Positions 6,746 to 14,383 of a stretch of 14,383 nucleotides of DNA are shown here, in pieces. Every line of letters begins with the position of its first letter. Position 1 is the first letter of the stretch. Source of the DNA: a virus. Under the pieces are notes generated by a model. That model saw nothing but the letters and a program-made list of their open reading frames with translations, did not search any database and was not told where the DNA came from. The position numbers and the translations under genes were made by a program. The stretch lies in the UHGV virus genome UHGV-1359728. The stretch is one strand, 5' to 3'.

Positions 6746-7396
6746 ATGAATACACAACTGATGGGTGAGCGTATTCGCGCTCGCAGAAAAGAACTCAAGA
6801 TTAGGCAGGCTGCCCTTGGCAAGATGGTTGGCGTGTCTAATGTTGCTATTTCCCAATGGGAGCGATCTGAAACTGAGCCCAATGGCGAAAACCTATTGGC
6901 CTTAGCCAAGGCTTTGCAGTGCTCCCCTGATTACCTGTTGAAAGGAGAGGATAGTCTTTCAAACATTGCCTATCACAGCAGGCATGATCCAAGAGGTTCG
7001 TATCCTCTAATTAGTTGGGTAAGCGCAGGATGTTGGATGGAAGCTGTAGAGCCATATCATAGGCGTGCAATAGATAACTGGTACGACACAACGGTAGATT
7101 GTTCTGAAGACTCTTTTTGGCTCGACGTTAAAGGCGATTCAATGACTGCCCCGGCAGGACTGAGTATTCCTGAGGGGATGATTATTCTCGTCGACCCAGA
7201 AGTCGAACCACGTAATGGAAAGTTGGTAGTCGCCAAACTTGAAGGAGAAAACGAGGCGACATTCAAAAAGTTAGTTATTGATGCCGGTAGAAAATTCCTG
7301 AAACCACTCAATCCACAATACCCAATGATTGAAATCAATGGGAACTGTAAAATCATTGGCGTTGTCGTTGATGCCAAGCTAGCAAACCTTCCTTAA
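6746..7396 (+). CDS. c2: Prophage repressor, P22 C2-type (HTH plus S24 LexA-like autopeptidase domain)
   Basis: 216-aa ORF MNTQLMGERIRARRKELKIRQAALGKMVGVSNVAISQWERSE... with an N-terminal HTH, an Ala-Gly cleavage site (SAGCW) and the GDSM/K catalytic motifs. Very close to the P22 C2 sequence as I recall it. Confidence 0.93.
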   Translation: MNTQLMGERIRARRKELKIRQAALGKMVGVSNVAISQWERSETEPNGENLLALAKALQCSPDYLLKGEDSLSNIAYHSRHDPRGSYPLISWVSAGCWMEAVEPYHRRAIDNWYDTTVDCSEDSFWLDVKGDSMTAPAGLSIPEGMIILVDPEVEPRNGKLVVAKLEGENEATFKKLVIDAGRKFLKPLNPQYPMIEINGNCKIIGVVVDAKLANLP

Positions 7397-7420
7397 GGGG
7401 CTTTCGCCCCTTTTTTATTT
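7395..7420 (+). terminator. Rho-independent terminator after the repressor gene
   Basis: Stem AAGGGGC/GCCCCTT with loop TTTC, followed by TTTTTTATTT; it overlaps the c2 stop codon. Confidence 0.65.
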
Positions 7421-7460
7421 CCCGTTAAAAATCAAAGACAAACTAAATTCACGCCCATAA

Positions 7461-7515
7461 AATTAAGTTTTCTTCAAAATGCACTTGACCAATAAATTAA
7501 GAAGTCTTAAATTTA
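7461..7515 (+). promoter_or_regulatory. OL operators and PL promoter
   Basis: Operator-like 18-mers at 7461-7478 and 7495-7512 (AATTAAG....CTTAAAT). PL reads as -35 TTGACC (7485-7490) and -10 TAAATT (7508-7513) with a 17-bp spacer, overlapping the operator. Confidence 0.55.
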
Positions 7516-7558
7516 AGCCATCAGCAGGACGCTGGAAGCCAAACGGAACAGATTGGCA

Positions 7559-7600
7559 GGCTCTTTAACATCGACGGACTCTCAACCTAACCGTTGAGAC
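7559..7600 (+). promoter_or_regulatory. nutL site (boxA plus boxB)
   Basis: boxA GCTCTTTAACA at 7560-7570. The boxB hairpin TCTCAACCTAACCGTTGAGA at 7580-7599 has a 7-bp stem and a loop related to the nutR boxB (CTAACCG core). Confidence 0.6.
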
Positions 7601-7709
7601 CAGAACTTGAGTGGTTTTGGGGATGGCGCGAATTGCAGCTGCAAGACAGCGATCGAGAAGATAAGCACCTCGACGCGTCATGCGCCAAAGCCACTTAAAG
7701 GAGACCATC

Positions 7710-8015
7710 ATGGTAACCATTGTCTGGAAAGAATCCAAAGGTACGGCAAAAAGCCGCTACAAAGCTCGCAGAGCAGAACTTATTGCCGAGCGACGCAGTA
7801 ATGAAGCACTGGCGCGAAAAATTGCGCTAAAGCTCTCTGGTTGCGTCAGAGCAGACAAAGCAGCATCGCTAGGAAGCCTTTGCTGCAAGAAGAAAGAAGA
7901 AGTCGTTCGAAAAAATAGAAGTATTTATTACAAAGATTCAAACCCATTAGGAAACAAAATACATGCAGTCCAAAAAATAAAATTGTACAGTAAACTACCG
8001 TACGGTGCTTATTGA
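7710..8015 (+). CDS. N: N-type transcription antiterminator (phage-21-like arginine-rich motif)
   Basis: From the ATG at 7710 (AGGAG 8 nt upstream) the protein starts MVTIVWKESKGTAKSRYKARRAELIAERR..., containing the phage 21 N arginine-rich peptide as I recall it. The C-terminus has the QKIKL motif. The track's upstream extension from 7680 overlaps nutL. Confidence 0.85.
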   Translation: MVTIVWKESKGTAKSRYKARRAELIAERRSNEALARKIALKLSGCVRADKAASLGSLCCKKKEEVVRKNRSIYYKDSNPLGNKIHAVQKIKLYSKLPYGAY

Positions 8016-8017
8016 GT

Positions 8018-8356
8018 ATGCTTATGGTGAAAAAGACTATTTATGTTAATCCTGACCGCGGACAAAACAGAAAAGTATCTGATAGAGGTCTTACATCTCG
8101 AGACAGGAGGAGAATAGCGAGATGGGAAAAAAGGATAGCATATGCATTAAAAAACGGTGTAACACCTGGATTTAATGCTATAGATGATGGCCCTGAATAT
8201 AAGATTAATGAAGACCCAATGGACAAAGTTGACAAAGCATTAGCAACACCATTTCCTCGCGATGTCGAAAAAATTGAAGATGAAAAATATGAGGATGTAA
8301 TGCACAGAGTTGTTAATCACGCTCACCAACGAAATCCAAATAAAAAATGGTCATAG
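8018..8356 (+). CDS. Hypothetical protein (about 112 aa), AT-rich gene between N and the tL1-like terminator
   Basis: Uninterrupted ORF in markedly AT-rich DNA. The N-terminal half is basic (RGQNRKVSDRGLTSRDRRRIARWEKR) and the C-terminal half acidic (EDPMDKVDK...EKIEDEKYED). The start is ambiguous (TTG 8012, ATG 8018 or ATG 8024) and the Shine-Dalgarno is weak. A terminator follows immediately. Confidence 0.55.
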   Translation: MLMVKKTIYVNPDRGQNRKVSDRGLTSRDRRRIARWEKRIAYALKNGVTPGFNAIDDGPEYKINEDPMDKVDKALATPFPRDVEKIEDEKYEDVMHRVVNHAHQRNPNKKWS

Positions 8357-8380: not shown

Positions 8381-8489
8381 TCTGAACAAACCTAATTTAC
8401 TACCGCAAGCCACGCAGTGAAATGGGTGTGACTTGTGTTGGTCGCCAGAAAATGAAATTAGGCAGCAAACCACTTATTTGAGGTGATAT

Positions 8490-8576
8490 ATGGAAGAAGA
8501 ATTTGAAGAGTTCGAAGAGCATCCTCAGGATGTGATGGAACAATACCAGGACTATCCGTATGACTACGACTATTGA
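8490..8576 (+). CDS. Candidate highly acidic, aromatic-rich micro-protein (28 aa)
   Basis: ATG at 8490 follows GAGGTGA. Sequence MEEEFEEFEEHPQDVMEQYQDYPYDYDY. The stop overlaps the start of the next gene by 17 nt. Not in the ORF track (under 60 aa). Confidence 0.3.
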   Translation: MEEEFEEFEEHPQDVMEQYQDYPYDYDY

Positions 8577-8760
8577 TAAAAATCAATGGTGTGGACAATT
8601 CAAGCGATGCAATGGATGCAAGCTGCAATCGGAATGCATGGTTAAGCCTGAAGAAATGTTTCCTGTAATGGAAGATGGGAAATATGTCGATAAATGGGCA
8701 ATACGAACGACGGCAATGATTGCCAGAGAACTTGGTAAACAGAATAACAAGGCTGCCTGA
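8560..8760 (+). CDS. ral: Ral-like restriction-alleviation protein candidate (66 aa, Cys-rich)
   Basis: 66-aa ORF with a CX5CX2CX5C motif (CGQFKRCNGCKLQSEC). Its position after N and before cIII/kil, and its length, match λ ral. Identity is by synteny and recollection, not search. Confidence 0.5.
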   Translation: MTTTIDKNQWCGQFKRCNGCKLQSECMVKPEEMFPVMEDGKYVDKWAIRTTAMIARELGKQNNKAA

Positions 8761-8799
8761 TGGTGGCCTTTATTTTTGGCATAAACAACAGAGGTGAAT

Positions 8800-8934
8800 A
8801 TGAACGCAGTTGAATTTACAAAATGGATGGCAGAGCAAGATATCACAGGAGCCGACGAAAAGGCTGTGTACTACATGGCTCTGCTATGGATTCACAAAGC
8901 AAAAGAGGCTGCAAATGCTCTTGGAGGTGAGTGA
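8800..8934 (+). CDS. Hypothetical small protein (44 aa)
   Basis: ATG at 8800 after GAGGTG. Protein MNAVEFTKWMAEQDITGADEKAVYYMALLWIHKAKEAANALGGE. Its TGA overlaps the next ATG (TGATG). Not in the ORF track. Confidence 0.4.
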   Translation: MNAVEFTKWMAEQDITGADEKAVYYMALLWIHKAKEAANALGGE

Positions 8935-9119
8935 TGTGCGAGTTTTATGAAGCAGATATCAAACGCCCAGAAATGGCAAGTGATGCGACATTACGTGATT
9001 ACTTCGCAGCAAAGTTCATGCAGGGAGTTTGTGCAAATCCAGACAGGCTTTATGACAACGAACCACTTGCTAAAGAAGCTTATGCGATGGCAGACGCAAT
9101 GCTCAAAGCTCGCGAATAA
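8934..9119 (+). CDS. Hypothetical small protein (61 aa)
   Basis: ATG at 8934 preceded by GGAGGTGAG (the ORF track starts at GTG 8931). Protein MCEFYEADIKRPEMASDATLRDYFAAKFMQGVCANPDRLYDNEPLAKEAYAMADAMLKARE. Confidence 0.5.
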   Translation: MCEFYEADIKRPEMASDATLRDYFAAKFMQGVCANPDRLYDNEPLAKEAYAMADAMLKARE

Positions 9120-9214
9120 GCACTGTGTATTCATTCCAACGAGTGAATACACGGAGCAATGTCGCTCGTAACTAAACAGGAGCCGACTTGTTCTGATTAT
9201 TGGAAATCTTCTTT

Positions 9215-9240
9215 GCCCTCCTATGTGAGGGCCTTTTTAT
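9215..9240 (+). terminator. Rho-independent terminator upstream of the cIII-like gene
   Basis: Stem GCCCTC/GAGGGC (9215-9220 and 9227-9232), loop CTATGT, followed by CTTTTTAT. Confidence 0.6.
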
Positions 9241-9304
9241 ATGCATACCAATAACGCTTCACTTGAGGCGTTTTCGTTATGCAATCAAATATAAGGAGTT
9301 ACCC

Positions 9305-9439
9305 ATGATGCACTTTCAGCTCGCGGGTAGCGGCGTCATGTCCGCTTTCTACCCGCACGAATCTGAATTATCACGCCGAGTTAAACAATTAATCAGAGCA
9401 GCAAAGAAACAACTGGAGGCGTTATGCGCAATGAAATAG
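9305..9439 (+). CDS. cIII: CIII-like protein (FtsH inhibitor family), 44 aa
   Basis: The internal ATG at 9305 of track ORF 9200..9439 is preceded by AAGGAG. Protein MMHFQLAGSGVMSAFYPHESELSRRVKQLIRAAKKQLEALCAMK resembles recalled λ CIII (MQYAIAG...ESLLERITRKLR...). Confidence 0.6.
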   Translation: MMHFQLAGSGVMSAFYPHESELSRRVKQLIRAAKKQLEALCAMK

Positions 9440-9576
9440 CCATCAATCACCAGATGCTTCGTGCTGCACAGAACAAAGCAGTAATAGCCAGATTTATTGG
9501 TGATTCCAAAATGTGGCTTGAAGCAAATAAAGCGATGAAATCAGCTATCAACCTTCCGTGGTATCGCAGGAAATGA
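9424..9576 (+). CDS. kil: Kil-like host cell-division inhibitor (50 aa)
   Basis: I translated this codon by codon: MRNEIAINHQMLRAAQNKAVIARFIGDSKMWLEANKAMKSAINLPWYRRK. The core IARFIGDSKMW resembles recalled λ Kil (IATFIGDEKMF). GGAGG lies upstream, and it overlaps the cIII stop as kil follows cIII in λ. Confidence 0.55.
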   Translation: MRNEIAINHQMLRAAQNKAVIARFIGDSKMWLEANKAMKSAINLPWYRRK

Positions 9577-9680
9577 GTTTTACAGATAACTGGTCAGACG
9601 AAGAATTCATTCGTCAGATGAAAGAAATGCTCAATCAGCACAAAGAACAGGAGAAAGATGATGATTCTGACTCTGAATGA
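9573..9680 (+). CDS. Candidate acidic micro-protein (35 aa)
   Basis: ATGA overlap with the kil stop. Protein MSFTDNWSDEEFIRQMKEMLNQHKEQEKDDDSDSE. It overlaps the start of the next gene. Low confidence. Confidence 0.3.
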   Translation: MSFTDNWSDEEFIRQMKEMLNQHKEQEKDDDSDSE

Positions 9681-9969
9681 TAAGCGTGAAATATCGCAAA
9701 TAATCGCAAGTTTTACTGATGAAGATTACGAACGAATCAACAGTGAAGTTGATCGCCTCTGCAAACGTTGCGACCCAATAAGCGAAATGCTTCGCTCATA
9801 TAAACCAGATGAACACACTAAGGACGCTATCGACTGGCTGGAAGATGATGACTGTAACTATCAGGAAAAAGCCGCTGAATGGTTCTGGGATGCAATAACC
9901 GAAAGAGTTAAGGCTGAATATGCTTTCGCAATATTCAAACGCAGACACATTTATGGAGAAGCAGCATGA
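9658..9969 (+). CDS. Hypothetical protein (103 aa) in the gam/arf/abc position upstream of recT
   Basis: AGGAGA Shine-Dalgarno before the ATG at 9658, and the stop overlaps the recT start. No similarity to λ Gam that I can recognise. Acidic, with WLEDDDCNYQEKAAEWFWD. Confidence 0.6.
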   Translation: MMILTLNDKREISQIIASFTDEDYERINSEVDRLCKRCDPISEMLRSYKPDEHTKDAIDWLEDDDCNYQEKAAEWFWDAITERVKAEYAFAIFKRRHIYGEAA

Positions 9970-10877
9970 GCAATATCGTTGAATTCGTTAAACAGCAAGA
10001 GCAGTTATTCTGCGGAGCATTGACTGAACAGACGGTGACATGGGCTAAGGAAAGCCAGTTTGCAATTCAGTATTTCCAGAAAAACGATTACCTGGCTAAA
10101 ACAGCACTGGCAAATCCAACAAGCGCACAGAACGCCATCATCAATGTTGCGGCGATCGGCATCACCTTAAACCCGGCTAGCAAACTGGCTTATCTGGTTC
10201 CGCGCGACGGCATGGTATGCCTTGATATCAGTTACATGGGATTGCTCCATATTGCAATGGAGTCTGGTGTTATCTCATGGGGTCAGGCAAAACTTGTTCA
10301 TGCTAACGATACCTATGAGTCAAACGGGCTTGATAAAGCACCAACCCATAAATACAAAGCCTTCGGTGACCGTGGTGATATCGTTGGCGTTTACTGCACA
10401 GTTAAGACGCCAGCAGGTGATTATCTAACGGAAGAGATGAGTCTGGCTGAAATTGAGGCTGTAAGGAAAACAAGCAAGGCAGCATTCAAAGATAAAGGAC
10501 CATGGGTAAATCACTGGAATGAGATGGCGCGAAAGACGGTCGTAAAGCGTGCAAGCAAGTATTGGCCTAAGGCATCACGTCTTGATAGTGCTATTCACGT
10601 ACTAAACGAAGAAGAAGGTGTATGGACTGAACCAGTTATGCCGCACAAATCAGAGGAAGATATCCGCGAAGATGAACGGAAACGCCAGCAGGAAATAACG
10701 GATAAAGCACAACTTCTTTGTGATGAAATGGCTCAGGCTGAAAACATGGATGATTTGAAGAGATATTTTGCAGAAGCATATCGCCTGACATCTGGAATGA
10801 AATTGCAGCAGAACGTACAAGCCATTTACATAGAATGCAAAGCGAAACTGGAGGTTGCCAGTGAGCAAACTATATGA
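9966..10877 (+). CDS. recT: RecT-family single-strand annealing recombinase
   Basis: 303-aa ORF. The motif KGPWVNHWNEMARKTVVKRASKYWP matches the conserved RecT core (Rac RecT: NGPWVTHWEEMAKKTAIRRLFKYLP, as I recall it). Confidence 0.9.
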   Translation: MSNIVEFVKQQEQLFCGALTEQTVTWAKESQFAIQYFQKNDYLAKTALANPTSAQNAIINVAAIGITLNPASKLAYLVPRDGMVCLDISYMGLLHIAMESGVISWGQAKLVHANDTYESNGLDKAPTHKYKAFGDRGDIVGVYCTVKTPAGDYLTEEMSLAEIEAVRKTSKAAFKDKGPWVNHWNEMARKTVVKRASKYWPKASRLDSAIHVLNEEEGVWTEPVMPHKSEEDIREDERKRQQEITDKAQLLCDEMAQAENMDDLKRYFAEAYRLTSGMKLQQNVQAIYIECKAKLEVASEQTI

Positions 10878-13272: not shown

Positions 13273-13820
13273 CCACTATAACCAAAGAGCGACTGCTGAC
13301 AATCAAGCAGTGGCGCGAAACATACGGACCGGGTAGCAACGTTGTACTGCCAGCAGAAGAAGCGGAAGAACTGGCACGGATTGCGTTAGCCTCACTGGAA
13401 GCCGAACCTGTAAGCCAAACTTACAACTTGCCAGAATTGATCGAAGGCATGGAAGTTTCCATTGATGTAAGCACTTGTGATGCTGATTTAGGTAATCGCT
13501 ATTTCGGCACCGTCACCGAGGCGTTAGAACTTGATACTGCCAAGAATGGTTACATCCTCCTGGTTCAGGACGCAGAGCCAAACTTCGATGTAAATGGCAA
13601 CTCTCCGGTAACTCCGGATGCTTGGATAAGCTGTAGTGAGCGAATGCCGAAAGGGTATGCTGATGTGTTAGTGACCGACGGCGAGCATGTCGAGGTTAAA
13701 TGGTGGGATGAATCTGGGTATTGGAATAGTTGGACGGAACTTAACTCAGATATCTTTGCCGATGAAATAACTCACTGGATGCCGCTACCGGAGCCGCCGC
13801 AGGAGGTTAACCGTGGCTAA
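13269..13820 (+). CDS. DUF551-domain phage protein
   Basis: 183-aa ORF with ATGA coupling. The C-terminal WISCSERMP...WWDESGYW...THWMPLPEPP matches the DUF551 signature as I recall it. Confidence 0.65.
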   Translation: MTTITKERLLTIKQWRETYGPGSNVVLPAEEAEELARIALASLEAEPVSQTYNLPELIEGMEVSIDVSTCDADLGNRYFGTVTEALELDTAKNGYILLVQDAEPNFDVNGNSPVTPDAWISCSERMPKGYADVLVTDGEHVEVKWWDESGYWNSWTELNSDIFADEITHWMPLPEPPQEVNRG

Positions 13821-14097
13821 CCTGCAACTTGCCGTTAAAGGTGAATACTTCGATGCCATGATTCGCGGAGAGAAAACGGAAGAGTATCGCCTGTGTAATG
13901 ACTATTGGAATAAGCGAATTATGTTCCGAAAGTATGACCGTCTGATTATCACAAAGGGATATCCGAAGCGCGACGATTCCAGCCGCAGAATTGATATTCC
14001 GTATGACGGATATGAAATCAAGACAATCACACATCCCCACTTCGGCGATAAACCGGTAAAGGTGTTCGCGATAAAGGTGAATATCGGCACTGAATAA
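13813..14097 (+). CDS. ASCH/DUF3850-like (PUA-fold) small protein
   Basis: GTG start at 13813 sits 6 nt after AGGAGG. The N-terminus LAVKGEYFDAMIRGEKTEEYR fits the ASCH/DUF3850 pattern. Confidence 0.55.
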   Translation: MANLQLAVKGEYFDAMIRGEKTEEYRLCNDYWNKRIMFRKYDRLIITKGYPKRDDSSRRIDIPYDGYEIKTITHPHFGDKPVKVFAIKVNIGTE

Positions 14098-14099
14098 CA

Positions 14100-14127
14100 A
14101 TCCTCGCATTCGCGGGGATTTCTTTTA
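14100..14127 (+). terminator. Rho-independent terminator (first of a tandem pair)
   Basis: Stem ATCCTCGC/GCGGGGAT (one G-U pair), loop ATTC, followed by TTCTTTTAT. Confidence 0.55.
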
Positions 14128-14131
14128 TCTG

Positions 14132-14158
14132 AACTCGCTACGGCGAGTTTTGTTTTAT
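14132..14158 (+). terminator. Rho-independent terminator (second of the tandem pair)
   Basis: Stem AACTCGC/GCGAGTT, loop TACG, followed by TTGTTTTAT. Confidence 0.55.
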
Positions 14159-14169
14159 GGAGATGATAA

Positions 14170-14337
14170 ATGCACTTCCGGGTGACAGGTGAATGGAATG
14201 GAGAGCCATTCAACAGAGTTATCGAAGCAGAGAACATCAACGACTGCTATGACCACTGGATGATATGGGCGCAGATAGCGCATGCAGACGTAACCAATAT
14301 TCGAATTGAAGAACTGAAAGAACACCATGCCGCCTGA
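14170..14337 (+). CDS. Hypothetical small protein (55 aa) bracketed by terminators
   Basis: ATG at 14170 preceded by GGAG. Protein MHFRVTGEWNGEPFNRVIEAENINDCYDHWMIWAQIAHADVTNIRIEELKEHHAA. Not in the ORF track. Confidence 0.45.
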   Translation: MHFRVTGEWNGEPFNRVIEAENINDCYDHWMIWAQIAHADVTNIRIEELKEHHAA

Positions 14338-14352
14338 TGGCGGTTTTTTATT
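14329..14352 (+). terminator. Rho-independent terminator overlapping the stop of the 55-aa gene
   Basis: Stem CCGCC/GGCGG with loop TGAT (the stop codon is in the loop), followed by TTTTTTATT. Confidence 0.6.
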
Positions 14353-14363
14353 GGAGACAAGAA

Positions 14364-14383
14364 ATGTCAGATTTGGCTATGAA
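14364..14383 (+). CDS. 5' end of a further ORF (MSDLAM...), truncated by the window edge
   Basis: ATG at 14364 preceded by GGAGA. Only about 6 codons are visible. Confidence 0.25.

Follow-up and report, generated by a model that had tools for sequence, protein, structure and literature searches.

The promoter-distal part of the leftward early operon of phages lambda, 434, and HK022 carries a small gene and three hairpins upstream of the excisionase gene. The gene is known as orf55 in lambda (lambdap35, 29,118 to 29,285), as ORF55 in 434, and as gp33 in HK022, where it is annotated as an "undocumented homolog present in lambda." The lambda hairpins are the terminators t3, t4, and t5 predicted with ARNold (Bloch 2014, PMC4195576, Table 4), and the first of them carries the label "tL4 terminator" in X51962.1, which covers the int-xis region of HK022, and "t-L4" in M60848.1, which belongs to 434. 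The GenBank tL4 labels and the ARNold predictions are apparently sequence based. The searchable literature yielded no in vivo 3'-end, Term-seq, or other experimental data on termination or N-dependent readthrough at tL4, t4, or t5. The gene itself belongs to the lambda "bin" interval (orf73, ea22, ea8.5, and orf55), which has been implicated in blocking the initiation of host replication (PMC9239242), and lambdap35 lies outside the gene set of the lambda CRISPRi essentiality screen. Closely spaced terminators before the RBS of a small gene are also found in the tL2 cluster of the same N-antiterminated pL operon, where tL2b lies upstream of cIII and tL2a is documented to form the 3' end of an sRNA, PreS/LPR1; tL4/t4 are not known to give rise to a product of this kind.

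We looked into a locus of this kind near the end of a 14,383-nt stretch from virus genome UHGV-1359728 (the whole stretch is called the window here). The 260-bp cassette listed in Table 1 aligned with positions 29,102 to 29,361 of lambda over 260/260 nt with 95.8% identity, and it was 95 to 97% identical to lambda, 434, HK022, and other relatives. In lambda, HK022, and 434, it was the minus strand that matched, so that the plus strand of the window is the leftward, pL-driven strand of a lambdoid prophage. A segment of 584 bp around the feature had matches in hundreds of lambdoid phages and in more than 3,300 complete E. coli genomes, and the cassette was found at ≥80% coverage in 2,180 of 5,426 such genomes, which puts the share of complete E. 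coli genomes with the tL4-orf55 stretch at about 40%. The locus is the tL4-orf55 stretch of phage lambda, an already known and ordinary case of terminators inside an N-antiterminated early operon: the homology extends over the hairpins and the ORF, and the distal pL position upstream of xis is the same. All three hairpins are present in lambda itself, those designated 1, 2, and 3 here being t3, t4, and t5, and the Shine-Dalgarno (SD) site and the 55-aa protein are likewise common to the window and the three phages. The neighbors differ, since the preceding gene is ASCH-like in the window and ea8.5 in lambda and the following gene is ORF114 in the window, 434, and HK022 but xis in lambda. Within the cassette, the loop of hairpin 1 reads AUUC here versus ACUC in lambda, one pair of hairpin 2 is U-A here versus U-G in lambda, and a Q53H change leaves the stem of hairpin 3 two A-U pairs shorter here than in lambda. 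There is little new in this rediscovery of tL4-orf55. The locus illustrates two established ideas, namely, that terminators punctuate N-antiterminated operons and thereby keep the distal orf55, xis, and int dependent on N and that the mosaic modules of lambdoid phages meet at intergenic terminator linkers.

Table 1. Cassette features and upstream operon elements, in window coordinates
Feature	Position	Strand	Remarks
LexA-family cI-like ORF	6746-7396	+	
pL-like promoter	7485-7513	+	TTGACC, 17-nt spacer, TAAATT; promoter scan; downstream of cI-like ORF
nutL-like site	7560-7599	+	boxA GCTCTTTAAC at 7560-7569; boxB hairpin TCTCAACCTAACCGTTGAGA at 7580-7599; read from sequence
Antitermination protein N	7680-8015	+	111 aa; weak Pfam N_peptide match, E 0.004
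Nun-like gene	8012-8356	+	mEp235-matching block
ASCH-like gene	13813-14097	+	94 aa; PHROG 625; RefSeq "ASCH domain-containing protein"
Conserved mosaic cassette	14094-14353	+	TAA, hairpin 1, hairpin 2, SD, orf55, hairpin 3; BLAST block
Hairpin 1, U-rich tail	14099-14128	+	tL4 of HK022/434, t3 of lambda; terminator scan and fold
Hairpin 2, UACG loop, tail UUUUGUUUUAU	14131-14158	+	Second terminator, t4 of lambda
SD site GGAG of orf55	14159-14162	+	7 nt before ATG (14170); in conserved linker
orf55 (lambdap35 homologue)	14170-14337	+	55 aa; predicted beta-beta-alpha-beta fold
Hairpin 3, U6 tract	14329-14350	+	orf55 TGA in loop; t5 of lambda
Start of next gene (434 ORF114 homologue)	14364-14383	+	SD GGAG at 14353-14356; window end cuts gene

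A sequence-only reading of the window had described two hairpins directly after the ASCH-like gene, followed by a GGAG site, a 55-aa ORF, and a third hairpin with the stop codon of the ORF in its loop. All of these elements were present, with boundaries that agreed to within 1 to 2 nt. Hairpin 1 has a stem of 9 pairs (14099 to 14107 with 14112 to 14120), a loop AUUC, and a tail UCUUUUAUCU, whose U tract is interrupted (UUUCUUUUA). The stem of hairpin 2 (14131 to 14138 with 14143 to 14150) carries a UACG loop and a tail UGUUUUAUGG, and that of hairpin 3 (14329 to 14334 with 14339 to 14344) carries a UGAU loop, which contains the orf55 stop codon TGA (14335 to 14337), and a tail UUUUUAUUGG. Folded alone as RNA, hairpins 1, 2, and 3 had dG values of -13.1, -11.9, and -11.4 kcal/mol and z scores of -5.3, -4.4, and -3.1, respectively, against dinucleotide shuffles. 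Each of the three combines a G+C-rich stem-loop with a following U-rich tract on the transcribed strand, as intrinsic terminators do. The number of terminator-like sites expected in the whole window was 14.6 on both strands, i.e., ~0.13 per 260 nt of one strand, versus the three seen in the cassette (Poisson P of ~4e-4, calculated from the scan figures). The TAA stop codon of the ASCH-like ORF (14095 to 14097) ends one base before hairpin 1, where a terminating ribosome could interfere with the hairpin; this closeness and the interrupted U tract speak against the explanation preferred below.

We then analyzed orf55 and its product. orf55 is a real, conserved protein-coding gene under strong purifying selection: among 30 distinct nucleotide versions from 101 related loci, 15 synonymous variants were found versus 4 nonsynonymous ones, 17 of the 19 fell at third codon positions, and pN/pS was ~0.06. 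The GGAG was unchanged in 28 aligned variants, and the 7 nt between it and the ATG were preserved in length, the spacer sequence differing in one locus only. The protein is acidic and tryptophan rich, as had been remarked (pI of 5.1, net charge of about -6, and 3 Trp among 55 residues), but the earlier statement that it belongs to no recognizable family did not hold, as a sequence search with the 55-aa protein returned its lambda and 434 homologues. It is identical to lambda Orf55 at 54/55 residues (98.2%), is also 98% identical to ORF55 of 434, and matches PHROG 676, a family of unknown function (E of 6e-39). Pfam, NCBIfam, and PADLOC gave no match for it. In an HMMER profile search of 1.84 billion representatives, the Orf55 family had only 54 matches at an E value of ≤0.001, nearly all of them enterobacterial fragments or fusions, with no informative distant family among them. 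A scan of genome contigs returned mostly lambda DNA contaminating unrelated assemblies and was uninformative on diversity.

The plus strand of the window presents the order cI, pL, nutL, N, Nun-like, ral, cIII, kil, RecT, Gp157, DUF5405, DUF2737, Ea22, DUF551, and ASCH-like, which is the lambda order. Over the pL-nutL-N-Nun-like region, the DNA is 99.2% identical to that of phage mEp235, whose annotation places a "putative Nut boxA site" under the matching stretch and names the N product "antitermination protein N." The pL-like promoter is likely the start of the transcript that reaches the cassette. Past this promoter, the N gene and the boxA/boxB elements are followed by seven plus-strand terminator-like sites (at 8355, 8749, 9215, 9253, 14099, 14131, and 14329), all located at gene ends, and this is the composition of an N-antiterminated operon. 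Two of them form a second tandem pair (9215 to 9232 and 9253 to 9272) that lies directly upstream of the cIII RBS and is homologous to tL2a/tL2b of lambda, i.e., to the described cluster whose layout the cassette resembles. Beyond the cassette, the window ends within the next gene; the sister prophage L003 of strain Ecol_545 contains the complete ORF114 homologue (16565 to 16909) and shows the succession of cassette, ORF114, and a TorI-type excisionase.

We also examined how orf55 could be transcribed. No sigma-70-like site with at least 8/12 matches was found on the plus strand between 14,200 and 13,926; within the larger interval from 13700 to 14200, there was a single weak match at this threshold (13898 to 13925), which precedes both hairpins, and sites of this quality were less dense here than in the window background. 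There was no cII box either. Moreover, the U tract of hairpin 2 ends at 14156 to 14158, only 0 to 2 nt before the SD site begins at 14159, and this leaves no room for a promoter. With no promoter after the hairpins, orf55 can be transcribed only by readthrough of both of them, and an operon-wide antitermination by N fits as the control, as the window contains both N and nutL.

We consider it highly probable that the locus is the lambda tL4-orf55 cassette at the promoter-distal end of an N-antiterminated pL operon, where the hairpins would stop unmodified RNA polymerase and N-modified polymerase would read through. The cassette stands just upstream of the excision/integration module. Its three hairpins would function as intrinsic terminators at which polymerase that was not modified at nutL stops, and orf55 and the downstream excisionase gene would be expressed only upon derepression of pL and with N at hand. 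Polymerase coming from pL and modified by N and the Nus factors would pass all three hairpins, and orf55 would be a delayed-early gene on the long pL transcript, with xis and int as further N-dependent delayed-early genes. From lambda biology, we infer both the termination at these hairpins in vivo and its suppression by N. In addition, the hairpins mark junctions of lambdoid module exchange, which explains why the cassette occurs beside many different neighbors.

The sequence-only reading had offered another view, in which the small gene was either a deliberately insulated, moron-like unit or subject to an attenuator formed by the upstream hairpins. That the unit is bracketed by terminators and portable was borne out (the 14094 to 14353 block recurs in 101 loci), but neither of the two mechanisms was, and we regard both an autonomous moron and an attenuator dedicated to this gene as extremely improbable. 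Like the morons of lambdoid prophages, orf55 is a small accessory gene with a 3' terminator of its own (hairpin 3) that is present or absent between conserved neighbors, and the genes flanking it vary between loci. Unlike them, it does not follow the promoter-gene-terminator plan, as promoter prediction assigned it no promoter of its own and it is part of an early operon whose orientation it shares. As for attenuation, the ORF list contained no leader ORF upstream of orf55, Rfam gave no match anywhere in the window at gathering thresholds, the stem of hairpin 1 is replaceable (see below), and the linker serves other genes in other phages. When 86 nt (14090 to 14175) were folded together, hairpins 1 and 2 formed in both the minimum free energy (MFE) and the centroid structures. 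The MFE structure also contained a weak helix between UUAUCU (14123 to 14128) and AGAUGA (14161 to 14166) that overlaps the last two bases of the SD site and could sequester it; we rejected this helix as evidence for attenuation, given that it is absent from the centroid and that the MFE structure has a frequency of 0.07. A competing antiterminator fold was thus absent from the centroid. Alternatively, processing of the pL transcript could yield an Hfq-binding sRNA that ends with the tandem hairpins, in parallel to PreS/LPR1 of lambda. This has a precedent in the same operon, since LPR1 ends at tL2a and binds Hfq, and the succession of hairpin 1, U-rich linker, hairpin 2, and U tail resembles an Hfq-binding module. 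A U-tailed terminator is present, but a conserved seed is missing, as phages differ in the sequence that precedes hairpin 1, Rfam contains no matching family, and the lambda RIL-seq study gives only LPR1, LPR2, and 6S as Hfq-bound phage sRNAs; the parts of its text and supplements that were searched do not mention the cassette region (ea8.5, xis, or lambdap35). We therefore hold an sRNA origin of the hairpins to be very unlikely.

A comparison of the 101 related loci bears on two further explanations. The ends of the homology block cluster at 14094 and 14353, so that the block opens with the TAA that precedes hairpin 1 and closes with the tail of hairpin 3, and it is flanked by at least 11 distinct upstream and at least 5 distinct downstream sequences, the latter including lambda pI/xis, an AlpA-type xis, ORF114, and two others. 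It is possible, and we entertain it tentatively, that the hairpin stretches are first of all mosaic linkers, which would mainly provide boundary homology for the recombination of lambdoid modules and whose role in transcription would be incidental. The homology indeed extends precisely as far as the outer limits of hairpin 1 and of the hairpin 3 tail, and in some loci the junctions fall inside hairpin 1, where unrelated stems precede the same, shared U tract. Many Salmonella P22-like phages have the TAA-hairpin 1-hairpin 2-GGAG linker in the absence of orf55, among them ST104, in which the linker connects the ASCH gene with another small ORF that precedes xis; P22 retains only the last ~45 nt of orf55 and hairpin 3; and in 434, two similar terminators flank ORF114. 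Distant Orf55 homologues (36 to 51% identity), found in Tbat2_3, 15G, Proteus phage Brookers, and Morganella phage IME1369_01, reside elsewhere in early-left operons. The tandem upstream terminators are absent from all of these, two of which have a hairpin at the stop codon, and the pair is hence not a property of the orf55 gene family. As judged from these alignments, the upstream hairpin pair is a portable intergenic linker and not an orf55-specific device. The role as a linker is compatible with termination under N control and does not exclude it, however, and the unrelated replacement stems are still strong, which points to selection for hairpin function rather than for sequence homology alone. 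The replacements of the hairpin 1 stem had dG values of -12.4 (AACCCGC..GCGGGTT), -10.2 (the 434 version), and -9.4 (AAACCTCG..CGAGGTTT, which contains a compensatory swap of U-A to A-U). Hairpin dG values were ≤-9 in most of the 101 loci, and those of hairpin 2 were ≤-10 in ~81 of them. Stem pairing was kept in 92.6% of cells, versus 37 to 56% when the 3' partners were slid; covariation consisted of one pair changed on both sides, a thin support because the sequences are >90% alike. In a minority of loci, a hairpin is lost or weakened (in 11 of them, the dG of hairpin 2 is -5, and in ~13, hairpin 3 contains a C-to-A mismatch), so that selection on each single hairpin is not absolute.

The other explanation supposes that termination is modulated by translation: a ribosome moving in coupling with the polymerase would cover the 5' arms of hairpins 1 and 3, only untranslated, uncoupled transcripts would terminate, and hairpin 2 would serve as a ribosome-independent backup. 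A short spacing between a stop codon and a hairpin lowers intrinsic termination, and the geometry of the sequence, with the upstream stop 1 nt from hairpin 1 and the orf55 stop inside hairpin 3, is of this type. The conserved block includes the TAA 1 nt ahead of hairpin 1, which serves several different upstream genes as their stop codon, and a stop codon within the loop is also seen at ral (8749 to 8770) and in the Tbat2_3 homologue of orf55. In lambda, however, ~20 nt separate the ea8.5 stop codon from hairpin 1, which means that the spacing is not conserved, and such modulation would be redundant when N is present. We consider this explanation unlikely and retain control by N as the preferred reading.

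We also considered what Orf55 itself might do. An AlphaFold2 model of the protein showed a confidently predicted beta-beta-alpha-beta fold (pLDDT of 89.8), for which the best Foldseek match in the PDB was T7 Gp2 bound to E. coli RNA polymerase (4lk0_M; TM scores of 0.59/0.62, E of 0.044), followed by the RNA polymerase epsilon subunit YkzG and phage p56. This ranking reproduces the Gp2 match of an earlier model of lambda Orf55, for which a T7 Gp2-like fold was proposed with a speculative docking model only (Donaldson 2021, PMC8614690). Gp2, an inhibitor of the host RNA polymerase, and Orf55 are both small and acidic and, according to the models, share the beta-beta-alpha-beta arrangement with 23% identity but without detectable sequence homology; Gp2 did not appear in a profile search of all PDB sequences with Orf55 at E values up to 10. 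It is thus conceivable, if quite improbable, that Orf55 is a Gp2-like binder of the host RNA polymerase or another host-toxic early protein, which the double terminator would keep off in the lysogen, or that the hairpin pair yields an sRNA. If true, either of these readings, Gp2-like/toxic or sRNA, would assign a role to one of the few lambda genes or terminators that are still uncharacterized.

Finally, the surroundings of hairpin 3 differ among the relatives. In lambda, the hairpin abuts the TTGCN6TTGC cII box of pI, and in 434 and L003, a similar terminator (t'-I), situated after ORF114, takes the place adjoining the cII box. The P22 annotation assigns the homologue of hairpin 3 to the opposite strand, as the terminator for aI, an antisense RNA activated by C1.

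The arrangement of two terminator-like hairpins, a ribosome-binding site and a small gene, as seen ahead of orf55 (a 55-aa homologue of lambda lambdap35), recurs upstream of cIII. The gene ea10 is missing from this part of the window, so that its tL2a-like and tL2b-like hairpins stand in tandem directly 5' of the cIII ribosome-binding site, and the cIII site is thus a second case of this arrangement in the same operon. The stretch at 9113-9272 (+) shows homology to the lambda PreS/LPR1 sRNA region. The placement of a stop codon in a hairpin loop, found where orf55 ends in hairpin 3 (14329-14350), also has a counterpart at ral, whose TGA (8758-8760) lies within the loop of a terminator-like hairpin that shares this design and is similar in sequence.

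Features of the early operon outside the orf55 region
Feature	Position	Strand	Remark
114-aa ORF	8012-8356	+	directly after N; counterpart of mEp235 "Nun-like transcription termination factor"
Terminator-like hairpin at ral end	8749-8780	+	GGCTGCC UGAU GGTGGCC, then T-tract
tL2a-like hairpin	9215-9232	+	end of PreS/LPR1-homologous stretch
tL2b-like hairpin	9253-9272	+	immediately after tL2a-like hairpin
cIII ATG	about 9306	+	

Some phages keep only parts of the orf55 region. P22 (NC_002371.2) retains hairpin 3 and just the last ~45 nt of orf55 (1501-1564, 98% identity), and its annotation places on the opposite strand of this hairpin the terminator of the "aI RNA", a C1-activated transcript of 485 nt antisense to eaC. 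It may thus be that hairpin 3 works in both directions in some phages; its minus-strand version (14342-14323 of the window) is a weak terminator candidate. In Salmonella phage ST104 (1201-1415), the linker composed of the TAA, hairpins 1 and 2 and the GGAG site follows the ASCH gene and opens, where orf55 would be, into an unannotated ORF of ~46 codons (MMILVISATYL...), hydrophobic in appearance and just 5' of xis.

Near-identical orf55 loci were also found in assemblies labeled Shewanella, Pseudomonas, Chromatium, Kitasatospora, Oceanobacillus, Paenibacillus and others (genome contig matches L087-L102). The contigs are often ~48.5 kb long or of very low coverage. These loci almost certainly reflect contaminating or spiked-in lambda DNA rather than real hosts.

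The 114-aa ORF has no match in Pfam and lies in DNA that is 99.2% identical to mEp235, where its counterpart is annotated; this prophage therefore seems to carry a Nun-type exclusion factor in addition to N. Comparison of positions 8488-10790 of the sister prophage in E. coli Ecol_545 with about 7400-7700 of the window revealed no similarity between the N proteins, and an IS21-family element, ISEc12, is inserted between the immunity region and N in the former. The distal cassette (14094-14353, from the TAA through hairpin 3) is 100% identical in the two despite their differing immunity and N modules, a further sign of mosaicism. Beyond the window end, the Ecol_545 prophage (16915-17040) carries a hairpin after ORF114 (a 434 ORF114 homologue), then a t'I-like terminator (GCCGCATCAATGCGGT, then T6) adjoined by a cII-box-like motif, TTGCCTGATTTGC, with a TorI-type excisionase 3' of the motif. 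It occupies the argW/dsdC-side locus, as does KplE1, and contains five terminator-like hairpins in the ~900 bp ahead of the excisionase.
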